Sequence record: PP047754
Direction: 5' to 3' (one strand)
Length of the DNA: 64,000 bases
DNA from: Escherichia phage KEP4
Below the pieces are notes generated by a model. That model was not told the DNA's origin. It was given only the letters and a program-made list of their open reading frames with translations, and made no database searches. The position numbers were made by a program, and so were the translations under genes. Of the stretch, positions 1,092 through 38,207 are shown one piece after another. The stretch's first letter is position 1, and each line of letters opens with the position of its first letter.

Positions 1092-2873
1092 ATGGCCACG
1101 CAAACAGTTCCTTCACTCGACGTCAGAGCATTTGAATACATTATTAAACAGCGAATGAAAGCTGATCCCACCTTTAAAGATTATGACTTTGAAGGTTCTG
1201 GTCTTAGTGCGATTATTCGTTTGTTGGCATCTGACGCGAACGCCATAGCCTTTATGCAAAACATGCTTAATGGTGAAGGCCATTTGAAGACAGCAAATCA
1301 ACGTTCAAACGTCGGTTTATCTGCTGCATTTCTTTCCTACACGCCTGACAACTATCGGGCAGCATACATGTATGTCAACATCAAAGTTACGCCTTATGAC
1401 GCCAGCACAGCCCCCAATGAGATCATCATGGATCGGCGCGTAATGTTCGTTGGGGCAAAAGACGGCAGTTCCTACAACTTTACTGTTGAGAAACCAGTGT
1501 CGGCAACGTTGACTGCAGACGGTTATTACATGTTCAACAATGTAAAGTTGATACAGGGGAATTGGTTGTACAAGACATATGATGTTGAAGGAAGCGCGAT
1601 TTCAACATATACGATTCCTTCTGGGAATGTCGATATCAATCATATGGTCGTGCAAGTACAAGAATCAGAGTCTTCCGACGTTTCGACGACATATCAACGT
1701 TACAACAGTCCATTTGATCTGAGCCAATATGCCTACCTGTATTTCGTAGAATTGGGTATTGATGGTCTGTATGTGTTTGAATTCGGAGATGGTTATCTTT
1801 CGCGTCGAGTAGAAGATGGGAACGTCATATTCCTTCAATACTTAGAAACTTCTGGTGCTGATGGGAATGATATCACAAGCCTGTCATCAGCGTCATCCAT
1901 AGGCGGGTTTAACCAGGTCGATGTAGAATTGGTTTCCGAACGTAGCGCAGGTGGAGACGATCCGGAATCTATTGAGGACACTAAACGGTTGGCTCCTTTA
2001 GCTTATCAGGCTGATGGTGCTGCGGTTACAGAAACAGATTATGGTGTATTGACTGAAAGGTTATTCTCCAACGTCTCCCGAGCTAAATCATATGGTGGTG
2101 ACACGCTGTCTCCTCCTGATTCTGGCTATGTTTACATCGCTGTTATACCTTCTGTTGGTGAGACACTTTCGGACGCTGAGAAGGCCGATATCGTTGCTGC
2201 TCTGGACAAGTATAATGTGGGATCTATTACCCCCAAAGTGGTAGACTCCGAGATCACATATATCCAAGTCTCAACGACTATATTTTGGGATCCGACTTCT
2301 ACAGTCTACGTTGAAGAACAGATGAAAGTTGTTGTTGGAAACAGTATCGTTAAATGGGGTGAAAATAATCTCGGCGGATTTGACCAATTGTTTGACAAAG
2401 AAATATTGCAGGAAGCAATTACAAAAATGGAGCGTTCTATTAACTCGAATATTACTTCGGTTGGTTATAAACGCCATTTCAAACCCGATTATGGAGTCTT
2501 AGACAGTTTTACATTCAGTTATGGAAGAAGTATCAAACCTGGTTCTGTGAAAATAACGGGGTTCAAACCGCTTCCTGCCGAGGTGGATTTCACTTACTAC
2601 ATGCGCGACAATAATGGCGATTTGAACATGTATAAAGTGAATAACAATGACACGACAAAAGAGTTTTTAGTTCAAAAAACAGGGGTTGTAGATTATGCAA
2701 ATGGGGTTGTAGACCTTCAACAGATCACAGTCTCCAACTATAACCCTGAAGGGGTGACCATAGTCGTGTTACCGGATGGACTGAACCAGAACATACAGGC
2801 TACACAAAACCAAGTATTCAAGATTGGTGATGTGGTTGTTACGCCAGAGGTGCGCTATGTCCAAAGATCTTAA
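1092..2873 (+). CDS. baseplate wedge protein (T4 gp6-like), tentative
   Basis: 593-aa ORF; track start 1041 is TTG, ATG at 1092 has GGAG 6 nt upstream; position at head of the baseplate/tailspike block; product by synteny and size only. Confidence 0.5.
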   Translation: MATQTVPSLDVRAFEYIIKQRMKADPTFKDYDFEGSGLSAIIRLLASDANAIAFMQNMLNGEGHLKTANQRSNVGLSAAFLSYTPDNYRAAYMYVNIKVTPYDASTAPNEIIMDRRVMFVGAKDGSSYNFTVEKPVSATLTADGYYMFNNVKLIQGNWLYKTYDVEGSAISTYTIPSGNVDINHMVVQVQESESSDVSTTYQRYNSPFDLSQYAYLYFVELGIDGLYVFEFGDGYLSRRVEDGNVIFLQYLETSGADGNDITSLSSASSIGGFNQVDVELVSERSAGGDDPESIEDTKRLAPLAYQADGAAVTETDYGVLTERLFSNVSRAKSYGGDTLSPPDSGYVYIAVIPSVGETLSDAEKADIVAALDKYNVGSITPKVVDSEITYIQVSTTIFWDPTSTVYVEEQMKVVVGNSIVKWGENNLGGFDQLFDKEILQEAITKMERSINSNITSVGYKRHFKPDYGVLDSFTFSYGRSIKPGSVKITGFKPLPAEVDFTYYMRDNNGDLNMYKVNNNDTTKEFLVQKTGVVDYANGVVDLQQITVSNYNPEGVTIVVLPDGLNQNIQATQNQVFKIGDVVVTPEVRYVQRS

Positions 2874-3711
2874 TAATGGACACAACGGGGTTAAGTATGA
2901 AACTCCGTTGTTCTACCAGAATGATTTCCCTCTGTTCATAGAATTTATGGACACGTTTTTCAATTGGCTGTATAGACAGCAGGGGTTCACTCAAGAAGAG
3001 ATCTTGGCATATCTGGCAGATACGTCTAGTTGGATGAATCCCGAGAGTGAAGATTCTCCGGTTAAACAGCTGATTGATTTAAAGGCTGACAAGACTCCAG
3101 GCTCAGAGGCCAAGGATTATTTGTCTGATAAATTCTTGGTTCGTACCTTTGAGAACATGATGGCTCTGGATGCCGAAGAACTTTTAGATGCCGACGGAAG
3201 GCCGCTATTGTCAATAGAAGATAAGAACAAACAGATAGATGACTGGTATAATGATTTTGGTTTCCAACGAACTGTTGATAAATCATTTCAGGAATTTGGT
3301 CATTTTATCCCAGTTGGTTCGGATTCTTTGCTGACGGCAACGGGAGACAGGTTCTCAGTTTACATTGAAGGAACGAAACGGAGAACGCTAGATCATCCAC
3401 GTTGGTTGAAACTGTTAAAACATATCTATAAAATCCGCGGAACCAAGAAAGCAATTGAATTGTTCTTTTGGATATATTTTGGTTGTCCAGTCAGTGTCTA
3501 TTTCCCAAAAGAGGAAATAGGCGGTCTGGATGGCAATTTTGAATGTGACGGTATGACAGGGATGCGTGATGACTATTATTATGATGAGTACACTTACGTG
3601 ATAAGAGTCCCAGGCGACGTATCTGATTTCGAAGGCGTATTTGAACGTGTCTTCCGTCAGCATTTCCATCCTGCTGGGTTTACTGTATTCCTAGAAAGTT
3701 CAAGGAGCTAA
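2857..3711 (+). CDS. putative baseplate/tail structural protein (284 aa)
   Basis: ATG at 2857 with GAGG 7 nt upstream, overlaps upstream gene by 17 nt; no motif recognised. Confidence 0.5.
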   Translation: MSKDLNNGHNGVKYETPLFYQNDFPLFIEFMDTFFNWLYRQQGFTQEEILAYLADTSSWMNPESEDSPVKQLIDLKADKTPGSEAKDYLSDKFLVRTFENMMALDAEELLDADGRPLLSIEDKNKQIDDWYNDFGFQRTVDKSFQEFGHFIPVGSDSLLTATGDRFSVYIEGTKRRTLDHPRWLKLLKHIYKIRGTKKAIELFFWIYFGCPVSVYFPKEEIGGLDGNFECDGMTGMRDDYYYDEYTYVIRVPGDVSDFEGVFERVFRQHFHPAGFTVFLESSRS

Positions 3712-3713
3712 AA

Positions 3714-4904
3714 ATGGCCGATTTCCTGAGTCAATATACAGGTCAGCAGATAGATCAGATATTGGGTTCTGTTGACGACAAAGTAAGTAAAAATGACGTT
3801 ATTAACGATTTTGAAGTTAACGACCCATTGTTTCCACCATCTGCTCGCCTGACATATGAGTTGAAAAGATCTGTTGACACAATCAATGATACTCTGGCCA
3901 ACAAAGTTATTCGTACAGATAGTGGTGAACAAACAATCAATGGCAAAAAGACTTTCAATGCGTTGTTGGTGACCAATGGGGGCATACAAGTCCCCGCCGG
4001 AAAATCCGTTTCAATCACAGATGAACCAACGAACTCGACAGATGGTGTTAACCTGAGCATGTTGAGAAAGCATGGCGTCAGTGAAGACACTACCCCGCCT
4101 GGTTCTGGTTTGGCTGGGGAGTTGTTGACATCCGGATATTACAAATTCAATTTGGATTTCACCAGATTGTCTGCGTATACCGGACCAACGTTGCCGACTT
4201 CAGTTCCTGTACAGACAGATTCTGGAGCGCGTTATTGGACAATGACTGCATTTTTTGATGCGTTGTTTGCAGACAACCGATTTAATGGATATGTGACAAC
4301 GACAGCGTATGACGCAGATATGCTGAGTCTAGAGTCTCAAATTAATAACATCAACACGTCGTTGAACGGGAAAGTCAACACCTCGACTTACAACACTAAG
4401 ATGGCGTCGTTGGATTTGAGTATCTCCAATATCAACACGTCTCTGGGTAATAAAGTCGAGGTCAGCACATATAATACGAAGATGACTTCCTTGGACGGCA
4501 GTATCAGTTCTCTCACGACTGGTAAGGTCGATGTATCAACGTATAATGCCAAAATGACCACAATTGATAACAGTTTAGGGAACGCAGTTTATCGCACAAA
4601 AACAAACTTGTCGTCATACACGGTTTCGGCTTCGGGAACGACGGCTCTTCCAGATTTTGATTTGGTGAACCTTTGTCAAATACTGGTAACTGCGCAATGG
4701 GGGACAGGTAACGTTGTTGACACATATCGAGTAACCATAACTCGTGACGGAACGATCAAATCAGAGTTGTTGGTTCAGAAAAGTACGAGTGGTACAGTGA
4801 CGTTCACAGGGTCTGTGGTGGGCGGTAAATTGAGAATTTCCGTTGTTAATGCGAATACAACAACTGCTTGTTCTGTCGATTATTCTATTGCAGCTTCTTT
4901 CTAA
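3714..4904 (+). CDS. tail fibre-like protein with tandem 27-aa repeats
   Basis: 396 aa; N-terminal KVIRTDSGEQTINGKKTFN fibre-type motif; central repeats NINTSLNGKV-TSTYNTKM-SLD. Confidence 0.6.
   Translation: MADFLSQYTGQQIDQILGSVDDKVSKNDVINDFEVNDPLFPPSARLTYELKRSVDTINDTLANKVIRTDSGEQTINGKKTFNALLVTNGGIQVPAGKSVSITDEPTNSTDGVNLSMLRKHGVSEDTTPPGSGLAGELLTSGYYKFNLDFTRLSAYTGPTLPTSVPVQTDSGARYWTMTAFFDALFADNRFNGYVTTTAYDADMLSLESQINNINTSLNGKVNTSTYNTKMASLDLSISNINTSLGNKVEVSTYNTKMTSLDGSISSLTTGKVDVSTYNAKMTTIDNSLGNAVYRTKTNLSSYTVSASGTTALPDFDLVNLCQILVTAQWGTGNVVDTYRVTITRDGTIKSELLVQKSTSGTVTFTGSVVGGKLRISVVNANTTTACSVDYSIAASF
4347..4580 (+). repeat. two full and one partial 81-bp in-frame tandem repeats inside the fibre gene
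   Basis: units start at 4347 and 4428 (aacatcaacacgtc / aatatcaacacgtc); third unit degenerate. Confidence 0.6.
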
Positions 4905-4909
4905 AACTA

Positions 4910-4946
4910 AATACCCCTAGATGACATGAATACATTTAGGGGTATT
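4910..4946 (+). promoter_or_regulatory. hairpin fused to late-promoter box (CTAAATACCCC at 4907-4917); 10-bp stem aataccccta/taggggtatt
   Basis: perfect inverted repeat 4910-4919 / 4937-4946; right-arm GGGG lies 8 nt before ATG 4951. Confidence 0.6.
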
Positions 4947-4950
4947 ACAA

Positions 4951-7900
4951 ATGGCCAACAAACCAACACAGCCTCTTTTCCCTTTGGGTTTAGAAACTTC
5001 TGAGTCTTCGAACATAAAAGGCTTCAACAACTCCGGCACTATTGAGCATTCCCCTGGTGCCGTAATGACATTTCCTGAAGATACTGAAGTTACAGGTCTT
5101 CCATCTTCTGTGCGTTACAATCCTGATAGTGATGAATTTGAAGGTTATTACGAAAACGGTGGTTGGTTGTCTTTGGGTGGCGGCGGAATACGCTGGGAAA
5201 CGCTCCCTTACGCTCCCTCTAGCAATTTGTTAGAAGGTCGCGGCTATCTCATTAATAATACGACAGGGACTTCTACAGTGGTTCTCCCTTCCCCTACGCG
5301 CGTTGGTGATTCAGTTACAATTTGTGATGCCTATGGGAAATTCGCGACGTATCCATTGACTGTATCTCCAGCGGGAAATAACCTGTACGGCTCCACCGAA
5401 GATATGACGATATCCACCGATAACGTGTCGGCGACTTTCACTTGGTCTGGTGCCGAGCAGGGTTGGGTTGTTACATCTGGTGTTGGCCTCGGCCAAGGTC
5501 GTGTGTACAGTCGTGAGATTTTCACTCAAATTTTAGCATCTGAAACAAGTGCTGTCACTCTCAATACTCCACCAACAATCGTGGACGTGTATGCTGACGG
5601 AAAACGTCTTGCGGAATCCAAATATTCACTAGATGGGAATGTAATCACTTTCGACCCTTCTTTACCTGCCAGCACTGAATTGCAGGTAATAGAATATACT
5701 CCGATTCAGTTGGGCACTGGCGGCGGGGGTTCGGGCGCTTCTGCAATCACCTGGATTTACAATGGCGGATCCGCTATTGGTGGCGAAACCGAAATAACGC
5801 TAGATATCGTTGTAGATGATGTTCCGGCTATTGATATAAACGGGTCTCGTCAGTACAAAAATCTTGGATTCACGTTCGACCCATTGACGAGTAAAATCAC
5901 TCTGACGCAAGAACTGGAACCAGAAGATGAAGTTGTTGTGGTTATAAATGGGACACCAAACATTTATAACCAAATCGATCGTTCTTTACAGGAAGTTGCT
6001 CGCGCCTACAATTTTACAAATGCTCAAGTTATTTTGAGCAACGATTATACTTCTGTTCTGGATAATAAAGTCGTTATTTATGATACGACATCCCAACGTT
6101 CTTGGGGGATTCCATCTGGAATCCCAGCAGGTTCTACAGTGGTTTCCGTCAATGGGGATCAACTGAAGTACAAAAATGGATCAACTGAAACCACTGTTAC
6201 ATTGGTGAGTGTACCAGGTAGTGCAGAGAAATTGAAGAACGATCTGGCTTCAAACTCTGGTTCAGGTATGTTGAAAACTTCTAGAGGTGATACCGTAGAA
6301 GAAGAATTGACTTTCATTAATCAGAATATGGTCGTTCAAATTTCAGATTTCGCGAGTCTTAGAACTTTAGTGCCAGCCACAGCGGGTATCCGAGTCAAAT
6401 TGAAAGGTTATTATTCTGGTTCTGAAATCGGTGGCGGAGAATTCATTTCTGTCGCTGGAGATGCTGTTGATGATGCTGGGATGATTGCTCGAGTGTCAAG
6501 CAGCTTCTATTGGAAGAGAATTATCGACAAACACATTACTCCTGGCATGTATGGCATCAAAGGGAATCTTCCAGAAGATCCGGCAGTGAAACTGAACGCT
6601 ATGTTTACGGCTGCGGCTGCGGCTAACGCTTATGTCTTACTGAACGATGTCGACACTCTGGTCTGTAAAAGCCCTGTCGTGATTCCAGCACATTCATTAG
6701 TGTACGGCAACAAACGAACTATACTGAAACGTGATGCATCGTTGTCATATGCTAATGATTTCTTGACAATTATGAATGATTCATATGTCAAGGGGATCTA
6801 TGTTGATGGTAGCCGTTTAGATTCTCAGACTCCTCTAGAAGCAGTTTTGGTGCGTATCGCTGGGAATGTAACTATCCATAAGAGTGAGATCCGAAACAAT
6901 GCTGGCTATGGCGTTGTTGGTAACGCAGTCCCTGGTATTCGTATCACCAAGAACATTTTTTCCAACTTCGCCAAAGGTTGTGTAGCCATGTTTGGCGACG
7001 GAACAGCGACGAGTGATGATCTGCAAATTAATGATAACAGATTCTTTAACCTGGGCGCGGGAACCATTTATGTTGGCGGTTACTCAAACTTCCTTGTCGA
7101 CAAAAACGTCGGAAGAGGCACTTACGTGGGTTCTCCAGGAAACCGTCTGTATGTTGTGACCAATACTAACGGGACTATCACCCAAAGCGCTGGGCCAGAT
7201 TTTGGGCCATTGAAAACGGGTATGTTCTTTGTATTGCCTGGTGGTTCTGAACATATGATAACGGCGGTCAACAGCCTTACCAGTGTGACAGTAACCCCAC
7301 CACCGCCGTCGAACGCCACAGTTCGTGCAATCGCAGGGACAGGGGATCTTCTGGGCATCCAATCATGCTCCTACGGCACCATCAGCCGTAACAACCTGAC
7401 CGATTGCGTGACTTACGGAACTGGTGGAGGCACGATGGAGGGGAGCACTCTGGGTTGCAATTATGTCACTTGGGAAGACAACTTCATCCGCAACACAGGT
7501 AAGAACGGAATCAACGTCGGGCAATCAGGCGCTGGGGTTGCCACGTGTTCTATCCTGAGGAACACTCTGATACAGGTTGGTAACGGCGGTCAGGGTGTTG
7601 GCCCAGCGTATCTTCTGCCTTGGTTCGATACGCTAGGTATCGCTCTGTATCAGGGAAACCCAGGTTATATGGCGAATATGGACGTCAGTGATAACAACGT
7701 CTCTACATGGTCTGGCGATCTGAATGACGGCGCTGCTTGGTTTGGTATGAGCGGTTGTACGGAAGCCACTGTGACTTGTACAGGCAACAAATCTTCTGGT
7801 TATTCCGACGGCTATGTTCGTGGAGATATATTAGAAGTCACGTTGACAGGTTATGGTACAGGGGCGGCTGCGACTTCATTCGTTAGTGATGGTGAGTCTA

Positions 7901-8124
7901 TACAGATAACCGTTCAAACAGGTACTTCACCAACAGCTTCACCTTATTTTTCAGTGCGGAAGGCGATCCGCACCCGCCATCAACCGATGATAACGGCGCA
8001 GATCGTCACCACAACTGGGAACATGTCTCATTGTTGGGGTATGCAATCTAGTACAGCAGGAAACTGGATGGTGGGTCAGAATACAACTCCTTCGGGGCTT
8101 ACGACATATTACGCAAAAGGGTAA
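4951..8124 (+). CDS. tailspike protein, long form (1057 aa) with N-terminal attachment domains and a C-terminal beta-helix-like region
   Basis: shares an internal module with ORF 10771 (SLQEVARAYNF...VVIYDTTSQRSWGIPSGIP vs SIQEIARSANV...VVYDVAAQTSYGLPTIP); Gly/Asn-rich periodic C-terminus. Confidence 0.7.
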   Translation: MANKPTQPLFPLGLETSESSNIKGFNNSGTIEHSPGAVMTFPEDTEVTGLPSSVRYNPDSDEFEGYYENGGWLSLGGGGIRWETLPYAPSSNLLEGRGYLINNTTGTSTVVLPSPTRVGDSVTICDAYGKFATYPLTVSPAGNNLYGSTEDMTISTDNVSATFTWSGAEQGWVVTSGVGLGQGRVYSREIFTQILASETSAVTLNTPPTIVDVYADGKRLAESKYSLDGNVITFDPSLPASTELQVIEYTPIQLGTGGGGSGASAITWIYNGGSAIGGETEITLDIVVDDVPAIDINGSRQYKNLGFTFDPLTSKITLTQELEPEDEVVVVINGTPNIYNQIDRSLQEVARAYNFTNAQVILSNDYTSVLDNKVVIYDTTSQRSWGIPSGIPAGSTVVSVNGDQLKYKNGSTETTVTLVSVPGSAEKLKNDLASNSGSGMLKTSRGDTVEEELTFINQNMVVQISDFASLRTLVPATAGIRVKLKGYYSGSEIGGGEFISVAGDAVDDAGMIARVSSSFYWKRIIDKHITPGMYGIKGNLPEDPAVKLNAMFTAAAAANAYVLLNDVDTLVCKSPVVIPAHSLVYGNKRTILKRDASLSYANDFLTIMNDSYVKGIYVDGSRLDSQTPLEAVLVRIAGNVTIHKSEIRNNAGYGVVGNAVPGIRITKNIFSNFAKGCVAMFGDGTATSDDLQINDNRFFNLGAGTIYVGGYSNFLVDKNVGRGTYVGSPGNRLYVVTNTNGTITQSAGPDFGPLKTGMFFVLPGGSEHMITAVNSLTSVTVTPPPPSNATVRAIAGTGDLLGIQSCSYGTISRNNLTDCVTYGTGGGTMEGSTLGCNYVTWEDNFIRNTGKNGINVGQSGAGVATCSILRNTLIQVGNGGQGVGPAYLLPWFDTLGIALYQGNPGYMANMDVSDNNVSTWSGDLNDGAAWFGMSGCTEATVTCTGNKSSGYSDGYVRGDILEVTLTGYGTGAAATSFVSDGESIQITVQTGTSPTASPYFSVRKAIRTRHQPMITAQIVTTTGNMSHCWGMQSSTAGNWMVGQNTTPSGLTTYYAKG

Positions 8125-8137
8125 TATTGAATGCCTA

Positions 8138-8171
8138 AATACCCCATATTGGTCATCCTTTATGGGGTATT
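8138..8171 (+). promoter_or_regulatory. hairpin fused to late-promoter box (CTAAATA 8135-8141); 11-bp stem aataccccata/tatggggtatt
   Basis: perfect inverted repeat 8138-8148 / 8161-8171; GGGG 7 nt before ATG 8175; near-identical copy at 10726-10765. Confidence 0.65.
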
Positions 8172-8174
8172 ATC

Positions 8175-10715
8175 ATGATTTCTCAATTCAATCAACCACG
8201 CGGTTCCACTTCCATAGAAGTTAACAAACAATCTATCGCTCGAAATTTCGGTGTCAAAGAAGACGAAGTCGTTTATTTCACTGTCGGTATTGACCTCAGT
8301 GGATTTAAAGTAATTTATGATGAGTCTACCCAACGGGCTTATTCTCTCCCTTCCGGTATTGTTTCAGGGACAACTGCAATTAGTCTGGATGAAAGAGCTA
8401 TCCTCACTCATTCTTCTGGCTCTGTTGACCTTGGGGAATTAGCAGTAAGCCGCGAAGAATATGTGACTTTACCTGGTTCTTTTAATTTCGGCCATACCAT
8501 TAATGTGAAAAATGAACTTCTTGTTCACGATGATGAAAAATATCGATGGGATGGTTCTTTGCCAAAGGTAGTTGCCGCTGGTTCTACACCCGATAACTCA
8601 GGCGGTGTTGGCACAGGCGCGTGGATACCTGTTGGCATTAATTCTTTGTCTGGCGATGGTGGTTGGTCGCGTATCGGATCAGAATTTGGTAAATCTTTGA
8701 AAGAACATATTCAAAGTCTTCCCAGCTTGTCTGCTGTCAAATATATGACATTTGTTGAATACGCAGCCCTTTTGGCAGGAAACGACACGGTCAATCATGA
8801 CGTTAAAGTTCAGCAAGTTATGGATGAAGCGCATGAATTGAAATGCTCTGTTTATTTTCCAACAGGGCGTTATGTATTTGACACTGCAGTCAACGTTTGG
8901 ACATACGTTCGCGCTGTTTGGGGAGACGGTTCGGCCATTATCACCAGACGTTACGGAAGTCAGTTTAGTTCCCCTGGGGTGATAGATCCGGCGCATGATA
9001 CGCGTAAATTATTCCGAATGATGGGCGGAGCGTTGGGACCGCAGTCTATTCATGGTCTTATTATTGATGGTAATGCGCGTTCATTTACAGTCCCAAAACA
9101 TACTGATTCGGATCAAACTTATCCCAACCAAACTTATTATGGCGATGTTGAACCAGTCGATGTTGGCCCATATGTATTTGGACCGGAAGGAAATACTTCT
9201 GTTCCTGGCGCTTCTTACTATAACCATGATAAGAAAGAATCCGGTCTGACCGTTTTCGATATGGTGTTTAAAGATCAACCTGGTGGTGGTGTCGTAGGTA
9301 ATGGCCAAAACGTCCGTGTGTTTGGAAATCACTTTATGGGTTGGTATGACCATGCTGTGTATATCGCCGGAAGTAACTTTGCCTCGGAAGGAGACGGAAT
9401 TTTGTGTAGTGATATTGTTGTCACTGGTAACGTATTCCGAAATCGTATTAACAATCGAGGCAATGGAGCAGTCAAAGCACGATTTGGTGTTAATCGTTAC
9501 GCAGTTACAGGCAACTCCTTTGATATAGTTGACTATTGCATGGCATTTGAGATGGGTAATGGACCAGCGACTCAACCATTTGGCCAAATTGTTGTGGACG
9601 GCAACGTGTGCACTTCAGATGGTATGTTTATGCAAATCGGGAATGATATTGGGACTGAGTGGTTCTCGACCAATTGGCTCAAATCAATGACTATTACGAA
9701 TAACACAGCACGGTCGTTGGATCGCATTTTCTTGTTAGGGGTTAGCGGATCTTCCAGTTATATTATGGATGGGTTTTCTGTACAAGTGGCCAATAACCGA
9801 TTTTATGCGCCGTCATTTTTGTCCGTGTACACATTCATGACGAATACGGAATGGATGTTGAATAACAATATCGTGGAGATCACAGGAACTGCTATGATCA
9901 CAGGAGTTGATCAATCGAACATCAACAATTCACGGATATATCTTAAAGATAATGTTTTAGGAGTTCTCCGGACTGATGTTCAAGGTTATGCTGCAGTCAG
10001 TAATTTTCAACAAGTTGAAATTTCTAATAATACATTGCGTAATTTGTATTTCCAAATAGGAAGTTATACCACAGATCTGTTTATTAAAGGAAATACTGTT
10101 AACTACACATCTGCATTATCCAGTAAAAACTTGGCGCTCATGTATTCAAGTGCTGGGAATGGTTTGATAACAGCCGATATCAGTGATAATAAGTTTTTCG
10201 GTGGAGTTGGTCGTTGCCAACTTAAATTCAGTAGCAGCGCTTCTCTGGATTGTATTAACAACAAATTCTTTACAACTTCGGCACCGTTTTTGGAATTGCA
10301 TCCGGCTGGTTATACTCCACGTGTCGTTCGTATAAAGGACAATTTAATGCGTGGTGCAGGCGTATTGCTGGCTCCTCTTGCTTCTGGTGTTTCTTTGTCC
10401 GGTGCTGGGAATTATATGGTAATTTCGGGAAACACGTTGATGGCTAATAACCCATCTGCGCCTGAAAATATAACTTTGTATCAGGACACAGGTGCGCAGA
10501 GTTGGGTGGCCCATTATGAAACTATCAGATGTGTTCGAAATGATTTCAAATCTGCGCTGTTGGCGATTAATGCAACAGGGACAGCACAATCTGGTTTGAG
10601 TACTACCAATAAATTCTGGTTCGGGGATAACGCGACGATTAATACCACGGTTGTTTGTACTTATCCTGCTGGCAACAAAGCCAACACCGACATCACCCAG
10701 ACAGTTTCAGTTTAA
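8175..10715 (+). CDS. tailspike protein (846 aa), parallel beta-helix type
   Basis: N-terminal ~150 aa paralogous to ORF 13591; middle region has pectate-lyase-like repeats (GNGQNVRVFGNHF, VTGNVFRN, VTGNSFD). Confidence 0.7.
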   Translation: MISQFNQPRGSTSIEVNKQSIARNFGVKEDEVVYFTVGIDLSGFKVIYDESTQRAYSLPSGIVSGTTAISLDERAILTHSSGSVDLGELAVSREEYVTLPGSFNFGHTINVKNELLVHDDEKYRWDGSLPKVVAAGSTPDNSGGVGTGAWIPVGINSLSGDGGWSRIGSEFGKSLKEHIQSLPSLSAVKYMTFVEYAALLAGNDTVNHDVKVQQVMDEAHELKCSVYFPTGRYVFDTAVNVWTYVRAVWGDGSAIITRRYGSQFSSPGVIDPAHDTRKLFRMMGGALGPQSIHGLIIDGNARSFTVPKHTDSDQTYPNQTYYGDVEPVDVGPYVFGPEGNTSVPGASYYNHDKKESGLTVFDMVFKDQPGGGVVGNGQNVRVFGNHFMGWYDHAVYIAGSNFASEGDGILCSDIVVTGNVFRNRINNRGNGAVKARFGVNRYAVTGNSFDIVDYCMAFEMGNGPATQPFGQIVVDGNVCTSDGMFMQIGNDIGTEWFSTNWLKSMTITNNTARSLDRIFLLGVSGSSSYIMDGFSVQVANNRFYAPSFLSVYTFMTNTEWMLNNNIVEITGTAMITGVDQSNINNSRIYLKDNVLGVLRTDVQGYAAVSNFQQVEISNNTLRNLYFQIGSYTTDLFIKGNTVNYTSALSSKNLALMYSSAGNGLITADISDNKFFGGVGRCQLKFSSSASLDCINNKFFTTSAPFLELHPAGYTPRVVRIKDNLMRGAGVLLAPLASGVSLSGAGNYMVISGNTLMANNPSAPENITLYQDTGAQSWVAHYETIRCVRNDFKSALLAINATGTAQSGLSTTNKFWFGDNATINTTVVCTYPAGNKANTDITQTVSV

Positions 10716-10730
10716 ATTGAATTGAGCCTA

Positions 10731-10765
10731 AATACCCCATATTGGCAAATCCTTTATGGGGTATT
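10731..10765 (+). promoter_or_regulatory. hairpin fused to late-promoter box (CTAAATA 10728-10734); copy of the 8138 element
   Basis: inverted repeat 10731-10741 / 10755-10765; the in-frame ATG at 10756 lies inside the right arm. Confidence 0.65.
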
Positions 10766-10770
10766 TTCAA

Positions 10771-13536
10771 ATGACCAGAAATGTAGAAGAATTATTCGGC
10801 GGCGTAATCACAGCTCCCCACCAGATTCCTTTCACTTATAAATCAAGTGTCGGTGGAGAAACTTTCTTTTCTCTACCTTTCTATCCTGTCACTGGCGTAG
10901 TCACAATTAACGGCGGCATGCAAGTTCCGTTAGACAACTTCGAGATAGACGGGAATACGTTGAATCTCGGGCGCGCATTGTCCAAAGGCGATGTTGTGTA
11001 TTGCTTATTCGATAAAATTCTTTCACCAGAAGACACTGCCAAAGGCATCCGCATATACAAATTTCAAGCCGTGGGTGGAGAAACTGAATTCACGCCTGAC
11101 TTTACTTCTTATGGTGTACAGTCTCTTTATATCGGTGGCGAATACAAAACTCCTGATATAGAATATTCCTATAACAGCACGACAGGGAAAGTGTCTTTGC
11201 AAACTGCATTGACTGCAGGCGTTTGGGTAGTCGCTGAAATGTCTGTTAAACAACCGAATATCAGTCCGGCGTTTGATCGCAGTATTCAAGAAATTGCCCG
11301 TTCTGCTAATGTGAAAGACTCTGAAGTCATCGTTAGTACGGACACCATATCTTTATTGGATGGGAAGAAAGTTGTTTATGACGTAGCGGCGCAAACCAGT
11401 TATGGCTTACCAACCATTCCTGATGGTTCTGTCATTTCTTCTGTTAGTAATGGGCAACTTACTTATAATCCAGGTAATGTTGTAGTGGATTTGTTACCTT
11501 TAGAAGATTCATTTATTAATGTGATAAACACTCTGGGGCGCAATGATGGTGCCAAGTATATCGGAGAATGCCATTCTGTTGCTGATCTCAGGAATACTGA
11601 ACCCACTATGGATGGACAACGCATTATTCTTAAGCAACACACTGCGGGTACTCTTCTTGGTGGAGGGGTATTCCGTGCGTTAATTGATGGTACAGGAAAG
11701 ACTGATGATAACGGCACTGTGATCAAAACTGTTGGCGGCGCAGCCTGGTTACGTGTTAATGCTGATAGAGTTAACCCATTCATGTTTGGTGCTTTGGGCG
11801 GTTCTAATGATGATACTATTCCAGTACAATCTTGTGTGGACAGTGGTAAGGCCACACAATTAACTGGTGTACATTACGTTAGCAATATCCGGTTAAAATA
11901 TAATACGTCGTCTATTTATGGGTCTGGATTACATTACTCCAGGTTGCATCAGTTGCCTTCTGCTACTGGGAATTGTATTACCATAAAAGATACATGCTCC
12001 CTTATTGTATTAGACTCCTTTGGGGTATATGGCACAGGTGCACAACAAGGCACATCATTTACTGCGGGTACAACAGGTATCTATATAGAAACTCCTTCAG
12101 GTCTCTCAGCCGATTATCCGTTCCACACTACCGCAGACCCAAGACGCGACTTGTGTATTTCTAAGGTCCATATAGCAGGTTTTGATGAATATGGGTTAAA
12201 TATTGATAGTGGTAACTTTAGTGTTACTACAGATTCTCTTTTAGTCAACCACATCAATCAGGTGGGCGTCCGTTGTGCTACTACTGATTGGACTTGGACA
12301 AATATTCAGGTTAATACCTGCGGTAAACAATGTCTGGTTCTTGATGGTTGTGGTAATGGTCGTATTATTGGTGGTAAATTCATTTGGGCTAACTGGCAAC
12401 CTTATGGTACAGTAGGACAGTTCCCAGGCATTACTATTAATAATAGCCAGAATATGGTTATTAATGGTATTGAGGTACAAGATTGTGGCGGGAATGGCAT
12501 TGAGATTAGCGATTCATATTCAATTTCCATGAACGGATTGAACACCAATCGTAACGGCATCAACGCTAACAACACTTTCTACAACATCGTATTTAACAAA
12601 AGTGATGCAGTTATCAACGGATTCGTAGGACTCAATTATGCTGCGAATAGTGGTTCAGGTGCTAACTCTAGTGCAGGCAATTTTCAGTTCCTGTCTAATG
12701 ATTGCAGCGTCACCATTAATGGTGTGGTTGAGACTGGTTATATGGGCATTAACTTTATTGGTGATAACAATATTATCAACCCCACAAATTCCGAACTGAG
12801 CATTAACGGATTGGTTAATTATTCCAAGACTGGTTTGCAAACCATGAACGAGACCCCTACATTTGATGGTGTTAGCACTACACCTGTTTATGTAAGTGTC
12901 CCATCTTCTGTAGGGCAAGTAAATGGTCTGAGACTATCACAAGCCAACAAAGATAAATTACTGTACTCAAGAACAGCAGGTCCAGAAGGTATTACCATGG
13001 CTGCTGTTGTAGTACCTACCATATCTGGAGCTGAAGTATTTAACTTCATGGCCATTGGTTCAGGGTTTAGTGATACATCCAACAGTCTTCATCTTCAATT
13101 AGTTATAGACGCTTCTGGAAAACAAACAATTGCTTTGCTATTGGGGGGCGATGGTACAACCCAAATTTTATCTGGGGATTTACCTAACGACCTTAAACTA
13201 CAAAGTGGTGTGCCATATCATATAGCTATTGGTGCTAAACCTGGATATTTCTGGTGGAGTATTCTTAATATTCAGACGGGTAAGAGAATCAGACGGTCAT
13301 TCCGAGGCGCTTATTTAGCTGTACCATTTAATTCTATATTCGGATTAACTTCTTCATTAACATTCTTCTCGGATAGCAATGCTGGTGGGGATGCCTGTTC
13401 TGGTGTAGGTGCTAAAGTGTATGTTGGTATGTTCTCTTCTGAGAATGATTATGTAGCTTCACGGTACTACAACCTGATTAATCCTGTAGACCCTAATAAG
13501 TTAATTAGTTACCGTATATTGGATTCTTCTATTTAA
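10771..13536 (+). CDS. tailspike protein (921 aa) with N-terminal attachment domains and beta-helix
   Basis: start set to ATG 10771 (hairpin-spacer-ATG as at 4951 and 8175) rather than track ATG 10756; repeats GNGRIIGG, NGIEVQDCGGNGIEISD. Confidence 0.7.
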   Translation: MTRNVEELFGGVITAPHQIPFTYKSSVGGETFFSLPFYPVTGVVTINGGMQVPLDNFEIDGNTLNLGRALSKGDVVYCLFDKILSPEDTAKGIRIYKFQAVGGETEFTPDFTSYGVQSLYIGGEYKTPDIEYSYNSTTGKVSLQTALTAGVWVVAEMSVKQPNISPAFDRSIQEIARSANVKDSEVIVSTDTISLLDGKKVVYDVAAQTSYGLPTIPDGSVISSVSNGQLTYNPGNVVVDLLPLEDSFINVINTLGRNDGAKYIGECHSVADLRNTEPTMDGQRIILKQHTAGTLLGGGVFRALIDGTGKTDDNGTVIKTVGGAAWLRVNADRVNPFMFGALGGSNDDTIPVQSCVDSGKATQLTGVHYVSNIRLKYNTSSIYGSGLHYSRLHQLPSATGNCITIKDTCSLIVLDSFGVYGTGAQQGTSFTAGTTGIYIETPSGLSADYPFHTTADPRRDLCISKVHIAGFDEYGLNIDSGNFSVTTDSLLVNHINQVGVRCATTDWTWTNIQVNTCGKQCLVLDGCGNGRIIGGKFIWANWQPYGTVGQFPGITINNSQNMVINGIEVQDCGGNGIEISDSYSISMNGLNTNRNGINANNTFYNIVFNKSDAVINGFVGLNYAANSGSGANSSAGNFQFLSNDCSVTINGVVETGYMGINFIGDNNIINPTNSELSINGLVNYSKTGLQTMNETPTFDGVSTTPVYVSVPSSVGQVNGLRLSQANKDKLLYSRTAGPEGITMAAVVVPTISGAEVFNFMAIGSGFSDTSNSLHLQLVIDASGKQTIALLLGGDGTTQILSGDLPNDLKLQSGVPYHIAIGAKPGYFWWSILNIQTGKRIRRSFRGAYLAVPFNSIFGLTSSLTFFSDSNAGGDACSGVGAKVYVGMFSSENDYVASRYYNLINPVDPNKLISYRILDSSI

Positions 13537-13590: not shown

Positions 13591-15825
13591 ATGAATCCGC
13601 AATTTGCTCAACCAAAAGGTTCTACTTCAAAAGAATCGAATAAAGATAGCATCGCCCGTAAATTTGGGTGCAAAAAGTCGGAAGTCGTTTATGCGAAATC
13701 AGGACAGTCCTTGTCTGGTTATAAGGTTATTTATGACAAGGAAACACAGAGAGCGTATTCCTTGCCTGTAGATATTCCAGCAGGAACCACGGTTATTAGC
13801 CTTAGCGCCAGTGCTCTGCTTGTACACTCTGGGGGTTCTGTAGACCTGGGCGAACTAGCTTCCCAACGCAATGAATATAATGTATTACCTGGTTCTTTTA
13901 CTACTGGTGCAATAGTATCCACAAAGAATGATGTACTTACCCACAATGGTATCCAGTATCGTTGGAATGGTTCATTACCTAAAGTTGTACCTCAGAACTC
14001 TTTACCATCCAGTGATGATAATTGGATTGGCTTGGGTGCTTCTTATCTGAAGGAACAGCTTAACAGTACCAGTGGTGCATCCATGGTAGTACTGGCTAAT
14101 GGCAAAACCATTGAAGAAGAATTTGCCGAAGAAGCTGCATGGCAGAACCAAGAGAATATGGTGAGAACCGTTATTCCTAATGTTTATCACCATATCCGTG
14201 GCGTTCAGCGTCACTCTGGTAAAAACTTAGCATGGTCTGCTCCAGACGTTGCTATTGATAAACTTAACCCTACGGATACCGTCTTCTACCGTATGCCCCA
14301 GATTGTTAAAACTGGTGATGGTACTCTGATGATTTTCTGTAATGAGTTGCATGGTAACAATACAGATATTGGTGCTACTCCAGATCAGCAATGTAATATC
14401 GTTATGAAATACTCCATTGATAATGGGTGGTCTTGGTCGGCTAAGGTAGTGGTAGCTAACTTTGGGGCTACGTATCAGAACGGTGAGATTGCTGCTGTGT
14501 ATAACCCAGCAGATGGTCGGGTATACTGTTACTTTACTTCCTGCAAAGGCCAGTTGGGTTGGGGATACTCACAGCCAGGCAATGACCCTAATACATCATC
14601 CCAGATATATGTTACCTACTGTGATGCGGAAGCTCCTACTATATGGCGTACACCAGCTAACCTTACTGCTACCCTTAAGCCAGCAACGGCAGATTTTATC
14701 TGGACTTCACCAACTAAACCAGTTGTTTTACCGGATGGTAAGATGGCAATGATTGTGTCTACCGTCACTGGTTCACGGGTTGATTCTTTCCTTACCATCA
14801 TGAAGTATGACATTAAGTACAGCATGGACTACGTACTTAGTTCCGAAGAATCTGGTGGGGAAGTCGGACTGAACCTTTTGCCGGATGGTCGTATGGTGAT
14901 GAACTCTCGTGCTTACCACACCACAGACCTTAAAGGGCTTCAGAAATTCTATATCAGTGATCATCAGTTTAAGAACTGGCAGCACTTATCTGATTTAGTT
15001 ACATCGGATAGTAAGGGTGACCTGGTTCCTATTTTTGATGGGGTTAATGGTGTTCTTACTTGGGCGTTTACTTGTGCTAATGGTGTAGGTGATAATTCTA
15101 TTGGTCGTACTAACTACCGAGTATGGATTAGTCGTGACCTAGTTACTTGGGGGTTAGCTCCTACTGGGGATATCAACACAAGTGATTCTGTTGGGTACAT
15201 CGCATCAATGCCTGGTGGTGATGATGGTTATGTAATCTCTACATCTGAATCAGGTGGTTTTGGTGGTATTTGGTTTACTCAATGGAATGCTAAGTATATC
15301 CAGAACAGAAACTACAACCGCTATCACAAAGAGTTGCGAGAATTAGAGTCAGTAGATGAAACAGCAATGCTCGCATCCGGTGCTATTCCTAACTACTCTT
15401 TTTACGTAAACAAAGACTCCAACCTAATTAACTTCAACCGCAACGGTACTCCAGTTAAGATTCAGCAGTTGGGGGTTAGTCAGAATGCTGTTGATAAGTA
15501 CACTACAACTCAGACCCTAGCATCTATTCCTGTAGATGGTGTTGATATTGTATTAGTCACTGGTTCTGGTACTACTCTTACCCTTAGTGGGTTTAGCGGT
15601 GGATATATGGGCCAGCGTGTGACAGTTATCTCTGATTCATCTGGTGGTGGGGTGGTGCTTAAACGTGCTGATACAACATTGCCTACTGTAACGGACAGAT
15701 TCCACTTTAATGTGGCAGGAGCCTTTACTGCTTTGAGGGTAGACTATGCAACTAAGATGATGGCTACTTTAGTTAAGACTCCATCTGGTTGGTTCACGGA
15801 AAGTATTGCTAACGTAACAATCTAA
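13591..15825 (+). CDS. tailspike protein (744 aa) with sialidase/BNR-like beta-propeller catalytic domain
   Basis: AGGAG SD 9 nt upstream; N-terminal anchor domain paralogous to ORF 8175; FYRMPQIV (RIP-like) motif and Asp-box SIDNGWSW. Confidence 0.65.
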   Translation: MNPQFAQPKGSTSKESNKDSIARKFGCKKSEVVYAKSGQSLSGYKVIYDKETQRAYSLPVDIPAGTTVISLSASALLVHSGGSVDLGELASQRNEYNVLPGSFTTGAIVSTKNDVLTHNGIQYRWNGSLPKVVPQNSLPSSDDNWIGLGASYLKEQLNSTSGASMVVLANGKTIEEEFAEEAAWQNQENMVRTVIPNVYHHIRGVQRHSGKNLAWSAPDVAIDKLNPTDTVFYRMPQIVKTGDGTLMIFCNELHGNNTDIGATPDQQCNIVMKYSIDNGWSWSAKVVVANFGATYQNGEIAAVYNPADGRVYCYFTSCKGQLGWGYSQPGNDPNTSSQIYVTYCDAEAPTIWRTPANLTATLKPATADFIWTSPTKPVVLPDGKMAMIVSTVTGSRVDSFLTIMKYDIKYSMDYVLSSEESGGEVGLNLLPDGRMVMNSRAYHTTDLKGLQKFYISDHQFKNWQHLSDLVTSDSKGDLVPIFDGVNGVLTWAFTCANGVGDNSIGRTNYRVWISRDLVTWGLAPTGDINTSDSVGYIASMPGGDDGYVISTSESGGFGGIWFTQWNAKYIQNRNYNRYHKELRELESVDETAMLASGAIPNYSFYVNKDSNLINFNRNGTPVKIQQLGVSQNAVDKYTTTQTLASIPVDGVDIVLVTGSGTTLTLSGFSGGYMGQRVTVISDSSGGGVVLKRADTTLPTVTDRFHFNVAGAFTALRVDYATKMMATLVKTPSGWFTESIANVTI

Positions 15826-15955: not shown

Positions 15956-18900
15956 ATGCAATCTACAAATTTAAACCGTCGCCCGTATTGGGATGACTGG
16001 AATCCTGGGAAACGTTTTTCACGGATTCTTTTTCGTCCGATGCCTATCAAGGTTCAGACTCGCGAACTGAATCAGATGCAGACTATTCTTCAGGATCAAA
16101 TTGAAAAACTGGGCAACCATTTGTTCAAAGATGGTTCTATGGTTATCCCTGGCGGTTTGACGATCACTAACGCCGCAGTCTCTTTGAAATTCACTTTGGC
16201 TGGTGGTACTGAATTCACTGATCTGGAAGGTATTTCTGAACTCTACGTTTTGGGGAAAGACAATAACGCCAAAGCGCGTGTGCTGTCTCTTGAACGTGAT
16301 CTGTCTGCTCCTGATACAATGCTGGCTATCCTTGAGATGACTGAAGCGGGTAATGCTGACGGATTCCATGTTAACGATAATCTGTATTTCCAGACTTACG
16401 ACGTGAATGATAATTTCATTCGTATTGGTTATGGGATCGCGGCTGCTGTGACTGGTTCTATCGTTGCTCGTATGACGAAAGGCGTTTACTTCATTCGTGG
16501 GATGTTCCTAGACGTTGATGACGCGACTCTTATCGTTGATAAAACTTCGAACACGTCTTCCCACCGCGTCGGATTTAAAGTCACTGAAACCATCGTGACT
16601 GAATCTGAAGACGAATCCCTTTATTCAAATGCTCAGGGAACGATTAACTCCAAAGCCCCAGGCGCTCATCGTCTTCGAATAGATCTGGTCTTATCTCGAT
16701 TTGATTATGATGCTGTGGTTGAAGACTTTGTTGAACTGGCCAAAGTTCGTGATGGTAAAATCCAGTCTATGGTGACTCAGTCCACCTATAATATTCTGGA
16801 AGACACGTTGGCCCAACGGACGTATGAAACCAACGGCGATTACAACGTTTCAACGCACCAGATCGACATCCGCGAACACCTGAAAGTCAATAACAATGGT
16901 GGTGTATTCAATGCTGCTGATGGCGGCGACGAAAGTAAATTCGTGTCTGTAATGAAACCAGGTATTTCCTATGTTCGCGGTCGCCGTATCGAAAACGTCG
17001 GGGAAGAGTTGGTGATCGTTGATAAGGCGCGGGATACCGATGTCCTGAACAACACCCCTGTTGCGGTGGCCACAGGCAATTATCTGGTCACTAAGAATTC
17101 TAAAGGTGTGCCAGTGATATCCCGCACCGTTCGATACAAATTACTGAATGCTTCAGGCGTTACCCAGGCTACAGCACTTTGTATATCAGCTGAACGTAAT
17201 TCAACAGAATTTCGTCTGTATATGCGCGACCTGGTCGTTACTGGCGATGCATCCACTATCACCAAAGTGTCTTACGAAGAAAGCGGTATCACCATGTTCT
17301 CTGCTGAACTGGAATCCAATCAGTTTAACCAGAGTTCTATGATAGATCTGATCTTCTCTCTTCCGGTATTCGGTGTCAAGACTTTAGCACCAACTGGCTC
17401 CGTGGATATCAACTACACTGTTCTCAGAACGTATAAAGTGACGTTGGACAACAGCGGCGCGGGTTCTATTTCTGCTCCATTGGGATATAGTTTTTCCCCA
17501 GAATTTTCGTTGTACTCTGCAGCGAAATCTGATGGTTCTGAAGCGCAGTTCGATATCTCTGGTTCTTTGTCTTTGACTGGTTCTCCGGTCGGTTCGGCGT
17601 TGCAGATTTCTCTGGGCAGTGGTAATGCTAACCAGTCAATCAATTTGCTGGCGCTGATGATTCGTACCACGGCCACAATCAAAACGAAGACCATCACTGA
17701 AACAACTGAAACAGTGACGTTCACCTCGCAGACTAGCCACCCTTTGGCGAATCACGATGGTTGGAAATTGGTGTCGGTCAAAAACGATACTGGCGCAGAC
17801 GTGACCTCCAGCTTCGTCCTAGATGGCGGACAGCGTGATGCAGGGTATTACAAGTCTAACTTGTTATCCAGCGCTGGAGCAATCTCAGGGACGTATACAG
17901 TGGTGTATCAATACTTCGCCCACAGTTCCGGTGATTTCTTCTCTGCTGATTCGTATACTTCGATGGATTATAAAGATATCCCGAATTATACATCTTCTAC
18001 ATCAGGCGCGGTGTACGGCCTGGCAGATAGTTTGGATTTCCGTCCGAAAATCACCAACGGAACTTCTGACACAGATATGGTTCGTCCAAACACTGCAGTT
18101 ATTCTGGACACAGAATATTATCTGCCGCGTATTGACGCGATTTATCTGGCAGATAACGGTGTGTTTGGTGTGGCTCGTGGCATCAGTTCGAACAATCTGG
18201 CTTCTCCAGCAATCCCAGCGAACGCCATGCGTTTGTATGAATTGTTGATCCCACCGTATACGCCGAATATTGATGATATCCAAATTCGCACTATTGACAA
18301 TCGTCGTTATACGATGCGCGATATCGGTAAACTGGAAACCCGTATTTCCAATGTTGAATACTATACCTCTCTGTCACAGTTGGAATCTTCAGCGATGACA
18401 CAGCAAGTGTTTGACCCCATCACGGGTAATCCTCGTTTCAAAAATGGTATTGCAGCTGATCCGTTCAAAGACTTCCGGTTGATTGATGACTTGTCTGAAG
18501 ATTGGATGGGTTCTATCGATACCGAAAACGGACGTCTGCGCCCGTTTGTACAACAAAACGTTGTTGACATGACTCCGGTTGGCTGGAACAAAGTGATGGA
18601 TGGGATGGTGGTTTGTAATTACACGCCTGAAATCTCAGTGAACCAAGAATATGCGACGACGACGATCAACGTTAACCCGTATGCAGTATTCAACTGGGAA
18701 GGTTTCTTGAAGATTAACCCGACCACGGACTACTGGTTCGAAAACTATTATGTTGCCCCGCGTATTATTAATGAAACGATCAACACCCGTGGTACTGTAC
18801 AAGAAGGTTCAGTGTACGGAACATGGCGGACTGTTTCTGTTTCTGATCGTGTTTGGGAGCCGCATGGTGCTGGTGGTGTGTGGTGGGGATATCGTTACCG

Positions 18901-38179: not shown

Positions 38180-38207
38180 TATAAATACCCCCAAAATTGG
38201 GGGTATT
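38180..38207 (+). promoter_or_regulatory. exact T4-type late promoter TATAAATA (38180-38187) fused to hairpin aataccccc-aaaatt-gggggtatt
   Basis: 9-bp perfect stem 38184-38192 / 38199-38207; GGGGG 6 nt before ATG 38210. Confidence 0.65.

Follow-up and report, generated by a model that had tools for sequence, protein, structure and literature searches.

A repeat-bearing fibre-like protein encoded between the baseplate wedge and tailspike genes of Escherichia phage KEP4: a putative segmented coiled-coil stalk and a possible counterpart of T4 gp9

Results

The locus and the protein family

Within the 64,000-nucleotide (nt) stretch of Escherichia phage KEP4 that was analysed here (record PP047754; hereafter the window), a protein of 396 amino acids (aa) is encoded between the gene for a baseplate wedge subunit and the first of four tailspike genes (Table 1), and carries a tandem repeat in its second half. 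The account that best explains this protein as a whole, to which we give about an even chance of being right, is that of a baseplate fibre with a segmented coiled-coil stalk and a tip whose closest structural relative is gp9 of phage T4. Between bases 3000 and 6000 the window has 99.3% identity to Salmonella phage ISTP3; its identity to many other Kuttervirus genomes (Ackermannviridae) is ~94%. The gene order, in which a gp6-like gene is followed by a wedge gene (PF23786), the 396-aa gene and TSP4, is the same in the window, CBA120, PP35, AG3 and CAU_YEP3, and also in KWBSE43-6, IME250, May, phiMAM1 and Bue1; the CBA120 counterparts are orf217, orf216 and orf215, then orf213-210 (TSP4 to TSP1).

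All 396 residues of the protein match positions 1-416 of the phrog_3838 profile (E 1.4e-218), and from its sequence we identify it as the Kuttervirus orthologue of CBA120 orf215/Vi01_174, an uncharacterised virion protein family. The orthologues CBA120 orf215, Vi01_174 (Vi01_174c) and Det7 205 (gp205) are 97-99.7% identical to it and of equal length, as are those in 160+ Kuttervirus genomes, and nothing sets the protein apart from that family; a protein designated gp135 is taken as a probable orthologue by gene order only. The orthologues are variously annotated as 'hypothetical', 'tail fiber protein' or 'structural protein', and in one case (H67, GenBank) as 'baseplate wedge tail fiber protein connector'. 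These names, together with the phrog_3838 match, the position between wedge and tailspike genes and an elongated structural model, bear out the description 'fibre-like' that a first-pass annotation of this DNA had given to the product of the open reading frame (ORF), the limits and quoted peptides of which proved exact.

The gene was found by tblastn in 283 phage genomes (Kuttervirus, Limestonevirus, Agtrevirus, Taipeivirus, Miltonvirus, Nezavisimistyvirus and others), and when 1.84 billion cluster representatives were searched exhaustively with HMMER there were 28 relatives at E <= 1e-3, several of which (505-673 aa) have residues 1-133 alone in common with it and unrelated C-termini. The PDB sequence search gave spurious matches only (E > 0.2), and Pfam and NCBIfam held no model that matched above threshold; sub-threshold matches to BppL_N, Peptidase_M16_M, NPV_P10, DUF7154 and an enediyne chromoprotein model were dismissed. 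The 'tail fiber protein' ORF208 of GSP004 is a P22-like tailspike and was rejected as an orthologue. Literature searches yielded no study of orf215, no cryo-electron microscopy structure of a Kuttervirus baseplate and no partner for the TSP4 anchor domain.

Table 1. Features of the 396-aa gene, its product and the surrounding locus (window coordinates). AF2, AlphaFold2; pLDDT, predicted local distance difference test.
Feature	Position	Strand	Basis and remarks
Baseplate fibre protein gene (putative), 396 aa	3714..4904	+	ATG start; ORF list; phrog_3838; CBA120 annotation
Conserved N-terminal helical part, aa 1-64	3714..3905	+	AF2 helices 10-20, 27-33, 42-64
Neck-like fibre module, aa 65-125	3906..4088	+	NKVIRTD..EQTINGKKTF...VP.GK..I.DEP...TDGVNLSMLRKHG
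Small alpha/beta middle domain, aa 126-192	4089..4289	+	AF2 strands 133-137, 143-147, 163-168, 171-176; helices 177-192
Repeat unit 0, degenerate, aa 193-219, 27 aa	4290..4370	+	YVTTTAYDADMLSLESQINNINTSLNG; hydrophobic V2, Y7, M11, L14, I18, I21, L25, as in the other units
Repeat unit 1, aa 220-246, 27 aa	4371..4451	+	KVNTSTYNTKMASLDLSISNINTSLGN; AF2 helix 223-247 after break V221-N222
Repeat unit 2, aa 247-270, 24 aa	4452..4523	+	KVEVSTYNTKMTSLDGSISSLTTG; AF2 helix 250-270 after break V248-E249
Repeat unit 3, terminal, aa 271-292, 22 aa	4524..4589	+	KVDVSTYNAKMTTIDNSLGNAV; AF2 helix 274-292 after break K271-D273
C-terminal 8-stranded beta-sandwich, aa 293-396	4590..4901	+	Strands within 300-396; full-model pLDDT 85-90
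gp6-like baseplate wedge subunit	1092..2873	+	Pfam Gp6-like_1st and Gp6_C-I; phrog_219; CBA120 orf217
Upstream neighbour, baseplate wedge subunit (gp7-position protein)	2857..3711	+	PF23786 E 5.5e-154; CBA120 orf216 = 284 aa
Downstream neighbour, tailspike TSP4, 1057 aa	4951..8124	+	phrog_19374 full-length match; syntenic with CBA120 orf213
Four tailspike genes	4951-8124, 8175-10715, 10756-13536, 13591-15825	+
ORF of 1612 aa after the four tailspike genes	15956-20794	+	Only function-unknown PHROGs: phrog_358, phrog_877, phrog_5986
CTAAATACCCC motif (4907-4917) and 14-bp-stem hairpin (4910-4946)	4907..4946	+	Motif = 5' arm; in 46-nt spacer before TSP4

Domain anatomy

The AlphaFold2 (AF2) monomer model, built from 47 homologues, is elongated, with a helical stalk and a terminal beta-sandwich (overall pLDDT 69). 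The N-terminal helical part is presumed to be the baseplate-proximal anchor, the N-terminus being the expected attached end because residues 1-133 are common to longer proteins with other C-termini. The neck-like module that follows is poorly predicted in the monomer (low pLDDT), and at aa 65-82 the lactococcal lower baseplate protein N-terminal domain (BppL_N) scores 18.9 bits, under its gathering cutoff of 25.8. Homologues of aa 55-114 (window 3876-4055) occur as eight tandem ~55-aa modules, of the pattern ..TI.G.KTF....L.GGA.VPTG..LTLTDAP...TDAANKKYVDD.., in a metagenomic protein of 602 aa (P0124), and the neck-like segment is therefore itself a reusable fibre module. The C-terminal domain modelled alone reaches a pLDDT of 92.3 and a predicted template modelling score of 0.84. 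Mean identity between genera is 74% over aa 1-64, 69% over 65-125, 40% over 126-195, 53% over the repeats and 71% over 293-396; both ends of the protein are conserved while the middle appears free to vary, the alpha/beta middle domain being the most variable part.

A repeat array kept at the protein level

The first-pass annotation had described two complete and one partial copies of a 27-aa repeat, encoded by 81-base-pair (bp) tandem repeats. The repeats are real in the protein: the peptides NINTSLNGKVNTSTYNTKMASLDLSIS (aa 212-238, nt 4347-4427) and NINTSLGNKVEVSTYNTKMTSLDGSIS (aa 239-265, nt 4428-4508) share 21 of 27 residues (78%; 63% identity in the DNA), and autocorrelation of the protein at lag 27 gives 31 identities in the best 54-residue window, against a mean of 12.3 and a maximum of 17 for the best value over all lags in 500 shuffled sequences. 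The count and the offset required revision, as the third copy lies 24 aa (72 nt) further on instead of 27 aa (81 nt), and framing from the K-V-x helix break yields four units over aa 193-292 (nt 4290-4589). Nor does the array persist as a tandem repeat in the DNA. Tandem Repeats Finder (TRF), which picks up head-to-tail copies of about 70% identity or more, was run on 3714-4904 and reported no array even at a score of 30, and no DNA array in CBA120, KWBSE43-6 or IME250; units of the array are 48-63% identical to one another in nucleotides (48-60% for neighbours in the four-unit frame), the longest exact in-register run at lag 81 is 11 nt, and in more than half of cases the same residue in adjacent units is encoded by different codons. 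The periodicity is thus real and, to judge by this divergence, old, having been kept at the protein level while the DNA homology has largely gone. The repeat motif is conserved in all genera compared.

Register of the repeat units

In the AF2 model the stalk consists of four helices (the first at 196-220, the remainder as listed in Table 1), broken exactly at the K-V-x triplets. The register was analysed over 76 distinct units extracted from 120 homologue clusters, in which the hydrophobic positions are near-invariant (2, 7, 11, 14, 18, 21, 25, 28, 32 and onwards), with a strict 4-3-4-3 spacing from position 7; positions 7, 11, 14, 18, 21, 25, 28 and 32 are at least 80% hydrophobic. L-x-x (a-b-c) stands before the K-V-(D/N/E) triplet, and x-S-T-Y-N-T-K-M (e to k, then a) comes after it. 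Only units of 20, 24, 27, 31, 34 and 41 aa occur among the homologues, differing by 3, 4 or 7 residues or sums of these, the sole exception being a 35-aa unit produced by a 16-aa deletion in one metagenomic contig. Those of 20, 27, 34 and 41 aa correspond to 7n+6 and follow the scheme 'bbb (K-V-D) - efghijk (x-S-T-Y-N-T-K) - (abcdefg)n - abc'.

A register of abc-bbb-efghijk has been tabulated for the beta-layers of trimeric alpha/beta coiled coils, phage fibre examples included, in which each break inserts 2 or 6 residues into the heptad register, and lysine at the first position of the layer ('KAD'-type) characterises adhesin stalks and phage proteins related to them (PMC4786415). Such layers have lysine or an aliphatic residue at their first position and aspartate or glutamate at their third, a pattern matched here by lysine in first place and an acidic or polar residue in third. 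Each module of the KEP4 protein would accordingly open with a helix-breaking K-V-(D/N/E) triplet, and continue as a helix with core residues Y7, M11, L14, I18, I/L21 and L25 at heptad or hendecad positions. In a trimer, such modules would form a segmented three-stranded coiled coil of register 'abc-bbb-efghijk-(abcdefg)n', with the K-V-D triplets as beta-layers, joining a wedge-anchoring N-terminal part to the C-terminal beta-sandwich. We regard a segmented three-stranded coiled-coil stalk as the most likely structure of aa 193-292, the trimeric state being suggested by the fibre context and by the gp9-like and neck-like modules; that the K-V-D triplets form beta-layers of the alpha/beta type is probable, given the sequence pattern and the breaks in the monomer model. 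With a helical rise of ~1.5 A per residue, the 100-aa array would be an estimated ~14 nm long, and each unit would add ~3-4 nm.

The same kind of motif was also observed outside the family. Four metagenomic tail or host-specificity proteins (P0130, P0141, P0143 and P0145) carry a 20-24-aa motif of the KVDxSTYNxKMxxLD type in tandem, in up to >10 copies; they have only this repeat in common with the 396-aa protein, and neither its N-terminal nor its C-terminal domains. The motif, which no Pfam model covers, is therefore a widespread fibre building block.

Copy number among relatives

Homologues range from 369 to 441 aa, and a ten-genus alignment places the length differences in the repeat array; counted by their cores, the 120 homologue clusters have 3-6 units and a stalk of ~87-149 aa. 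The protein of Escherichia phage A221 (423 aa, 84% identical) is longer by exactly one 27-aa unit, and the DNA that encodes it shows a tandem duplication of 81 bp which is perfect (2.2 copies, 100% matches). This new unit joins the 5' half of unit 2 to the 3' half of unit 1, a hybrid such as unequal recombination is expected to produce. In Taipeivirus, 417-aa and 441-aa forms lie one 24-aa unit apart, and a 72-bp DNA repeat is still detectable in phage May (2.7 copies, 77%), with none in the 417-aa form of KWBSE43-6. The 16-aa in-frame deletion mentioned above lies inside the array of a protein 89% identical to that of the window (P0071; Logan contig ERR10140756_35055, L012 3001-4143), where it takes out one K-V-x break and leaves a 35-aa unit of five heptads. 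The tailspike encoded downstream on that contig is of a different type (945 aa, PF27114).

Closer relatives are uniform. Among the full-length clusters at least 89% identical to the window protein, 68 of 70 are exactly 396 aa with 27-27-24 spacing; two further close clusters hold a 397-aa form and a 355-aa partial sequence, and A221 and the deletion contig are the named exceptions to the fixed length. Modules would be gained and lost by rare in-frame unequal recombination, and we read the changes as rare evolutionary events rather than ongoing slippage, the copies in the KEP4 genome appearing old, diverged and stable in number.

Structural relation to T4 gp9

A Foldseek search of the PDB with the full-length model gave a single significant match, to T4 gp9 (1qex_A, E 1.9e-5), and the C-terminal domain alone matched the same chain (E 2.1e-5, probability 1.00, query-normalised template modelling score 0.62 over 116 columns). 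The second match was 9f4a_LA, a baseplate chain of Klebsiella phage Lilla1, a T4-like Jiaodavirus, and the matches from BFVD include proteins labelled 'Gp9plus10', gp9 and 'baseplate wedge subunit'. On these models the beta-sandwich is structurally closest to gp9, most likely to its fibre-docking C-terminal domain. T4 gp9 is bound to gp7 through its N-terminus, and its C-terminal domain is the site at which the long tail fibre docks, coaxially (PMC3004832). The genes of T4 run in the order 6-7-8-9-10, which is paralleled here by the gp6-like gene, the PF23786 wedge gene, the 396-aa gene and TSP4, a tailspike which has an N-terminal anchor domain and gp10-like XD1-3 domains (PMC8825819). The TSP4 N-terminus is conserved to a degree similar to that of both ends of the 396-aa protein.

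Homology to gp9 in sequence was sought by hhalign with the full-length protein and domain by domain, with reversed-sequence controls; it was not significant and is not claimed. One possible bridge is a syntenic 673-aa protein of Pseudomonas phage Cygsa01 (L009 2501-4522), which has the same N-terminal 130 residues and a long unrelated middle, and the last 82 residues of which match a T4 gp9 C-domain profile (hhalign 74-81%, E ~1e-5 to 3e-5); the next Cygsa01 gene encodes a TSP4-like N-terminus (26% identity). It is possible that this protein represents an evolutionary intermediate between T4 gp9 and the Ackermannviridae protein, yet proteins of the Cygsa01 type, the sole link to gp9, showed no significant link to the C-domain of the window protein. 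A bridge through P0122, P0123, P0125, P0127 and P0128 was also tried and rejected, as these reach the window C-domain (45-91%), not gp9.

Neighbouring genes and the spacer ahead of TSP4

The PF23786 match of the upstream wedge protein begins at residue 12 of its longest ORF (2824-3711), and 2857 is its likely start. In many RefSeq records this gene is called 'head closure Hc2', via phrog_3465. Given the strength of its PF23786 match and its position directly after the gp6-like gene, the label looks like a propagated mis-annotation. Further downstream, the 1612-aa ORF may encode a VriC-like virion protein, named by a review as a possible prong component. Minus-strand ORFs within 3714-4904 (57-111 aa) had no support and were set aside, and consensus scans for promoters and terminators around the 396-aa gene gave background level only.

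The spacer between this gene and TSP4 holds a hairpin (dG, the folding free energy, -19.1 kcal/mol; z -5.9), the stem of which is conserved in sequence in six Ackermannviridae genera with a variable loop, and which is absent in Cygsa01. Its 5' arm, CTAAATACCCC, has been named a family-specific regulatory motif (PMC7283392). Exact copies stand at 8135-8145 and 10728-10738, ahead of the next two tailspike genes, and copies with one mismatch at 38181 and 41357.

Discussion

The nature of the repeats

The repeats of the KEP4 protein are structural and of a kind ordinary in phage fibres, and the protein itself, though uncharacterised, is already in databases. The idea that the array is prone to expansion and contraction, and could thereby tune fibre length, was right on evolutionary time scales and wrong for the present state of this genome. 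Relatives do carry 3-6 units, and A221 and the Taipeivirus forms differ by whole units, such that copy number could well tune the length of the fibre, as far as sequence comparison can indicate a functional effect. Were the DNA repeat actively unstable, with slippage acting as a contingency mechanism and length variants arising within populations of this phage, then the perfect duplication in A221 and the in-frame deletion in the metagenomic contig might be its products; we consider this very improbable, as TRF detects nothing in the window or in CBA120, the units retain 48-63% identity and at most 11 nt of exact in-register sequence, and 68 of the 70 full-length close clusters have the same length and spacing. 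It is scarcely less improbable that the shaft is beta-structured, as a triple beta-helix or beta-spiral, or that the segment is a low-complexity sequence rich in serine, threonine and asparagine without defined structure. The composition is indeed rich in these residues, the AF2 monomer is only moderately confident in the array, and many phage fibre shafts are beta-structured. Neither variant is easily reconciled with a strict 4-3-4-3 hydrophobic spacing over 76 units, unit lengths quantised in heptad steps, or helices predicted throughout the array, and the tyrosine, lysine and methionine positions that are invariant across genera further argue against low complexity.

A segmented coiled coil accommodates these features, and has established parallels. 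The alpha/beta coiled coils (Hartmann et al. 2016, PMC4786415), such as the tail fibre hyaluronidase of prophage SF370.1 and the stalks of trimeric autotransporter adhesins, likewise have heptad and hendecad helices with regular K-x-(D/E/N) breaks, and the 20-, 27-, 34- and 41-aa units described here correspond to n heptads plus 6 residues. They differ in motif (MATKDD or KADKAD, against K-V-D-x-S-T-Y here), and the beta conformation and trimeric state which they display are, in the phage KEP4 protein, predicted ones. A second parallel lies in the general design of the molecule. T4 fibritin (wac) is also a trimeric coiled coil of helical segments with short breaks and a small C-terminal globular domain, although it is located at the neck, is built of irregular segments instead of tandem repeats, and ends in a foldon that has no relation to the beta-sandwich described here.

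A counterpart of gp9 or an independent fibre

How the branched TSP1-4 complex is attached to the Ackermannviridae baseplate is still unknown (PMC11721090, PMC8825819), and the N-terminal anchor domain of TSP4 has no identified partner (PMC8825819). Our leading hypothesis, which we hold tentatively and at somewhat less than an even chance, is that the 396-aa protein is the Ackermannviridae counterpart of T4 gp9 and works like it. With its N-terminus it would rest on the wedge protein in the gp7 position, its C-terminal domain would provide the socket for the TSP4 anchor domain, and the stalk would set the distance of the four-tailspike bouquet from the baseplate. Likenesses to gp9 (PDB 1QEX/1S2E) include a presumed trimeric state, a helical N-terminal part, a beta-sandwich, a gene between those for gp7-position and gp10-like proteins, and the proposed polarity. 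T4 gp9, in contrast, is 288 aa long and has a middle (XD1-like) domain that is absent here, and it lacks the neck-like module, the variable alpha/beta domain and the ~100-aa repeat stalk. A bolder form of the hypothesis, in which the protein is a long-missed gp9 equivalent that acts as a socket swivelling on an alpha/beta coiled-coil stalk of variable length, its C-terminal domain holding the TSP4 anchor and with it the whole bouquet, is speculative, and we consider it rather unlikely.

Several observations weigh against a coiled-coil stalk with a gp9-like tip, or against parts of that proposal. With regard to the stalk, units of 24 and 31 aa (7n+3) place the break after a complete heptad, a departure from the alpha/beta coiled coils and a misfit with their canonical 6-residue insertion, and the reading of beta-layers relies on the pattern of the sequence and on the breaks of a monomer model with a stalk pLDDT of only ~60-80. 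With regard to the tip, the Foldseek output does not indicate which gp9 domain aligned to the beta-sandwich; PF07880 (T4_gp9_10_N) found no match in the full protein at E up to 1, where T4 gp9 itself scores 1.2e-73, and neither PF23618 (T4_gp9_10_C) nor PF07880 found one at E up to 10. Alignment by hhalign to a 32-sequence gp9 alignment gave probabilities of 0.5-16%, which are not significant, and the best local gp9 matches disagreed, lying in the C domain when the single sequence was used and in the middle domain when profiles were used. Direct binding of the TSP4 anchor domain to the baseplate is assumed in the literature (PMC8825819), and a review states that the family lacks gp9-gp11 (PMC11721090). 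Finally, the target of a conserved distal knob could equally well be a conserved structure of the host. We do not file the protein as a member of the gp9 family.

The last of these points leads to the most substantial alternative, namely an independent short fibre, possibly the 'prong', with a role like that of T4 gp12: the beta-sandwich would bind a conserved secondary receptor, such as the lipopolysaccharide (LPS) core or an outer-membrane protein, once the tailspikes have cleared the O-antigen or capsule, and the repeats would set its reach. A conserved N-terminal anchor, a coiled-coil shaft and a distal beta-sandwich are the typical architecture of a receptor-binding fibre, and several records name the protein a tail fiber. 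Prongs of unknown composition have been described, with no short tail fibre known in the family (PMC11721090). In addition, Foldseek gave low-probability matches to lectin-like and carbohydrate-binding sandwiches, and stalk length varies between genera with hosts of different surface layers. These observations make a short fibre a plausible alternative, albeit a doubtful one on balance. The distal domain is 71% conserved over phages of Salmonella, Dickeya, Klebsiella, Serratia and Yersinia, which would be uncommon for a tip that binds a receptor; its best fold matches are gp9 proteins rather than receptor-binding heads; and the protein has no accompanying chaperone gene and, in Pfam, no match to a known receptor-binding domain family. 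As the tip is conserved across very different hosts, a phage-internal partner fits somewhat better than a conserved LPS-core ligand.

Implications

If the protein is a spacer fibre only, then its description amounts to routine annotation. As a conserved and putatively trimeric protein encoded between the wedge and TSP4 genes, with a gp9-like tip and a modular stalk, it is nevertheless an obvious candidate for a tailspike attachment factor. Phages of Kuttervirus and of the Ackermannviridae are widely used in biocontrol of Salmonella and E. coli O157, and in tailspike engineering. Whatever its partners, the family supplies, in its coiled-coil modules of 20, 24, 27, 31, 34 and 41 aa, a natural series in which to study how helix breaks are accommodated in trimeric fibres. 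Were the bolder reading, that of a swivelling gp9-like socket, to hold true, it would name the baseplate partner of TSP4, and could explain the 'prong', 'star' and 'umbrella' forms seen by electron microscopy. The number of modules (3-6) would then constitute a natural ruler for the distance of the depolymerases from the baseplate, in phages that face O-antigen or thick capsules.

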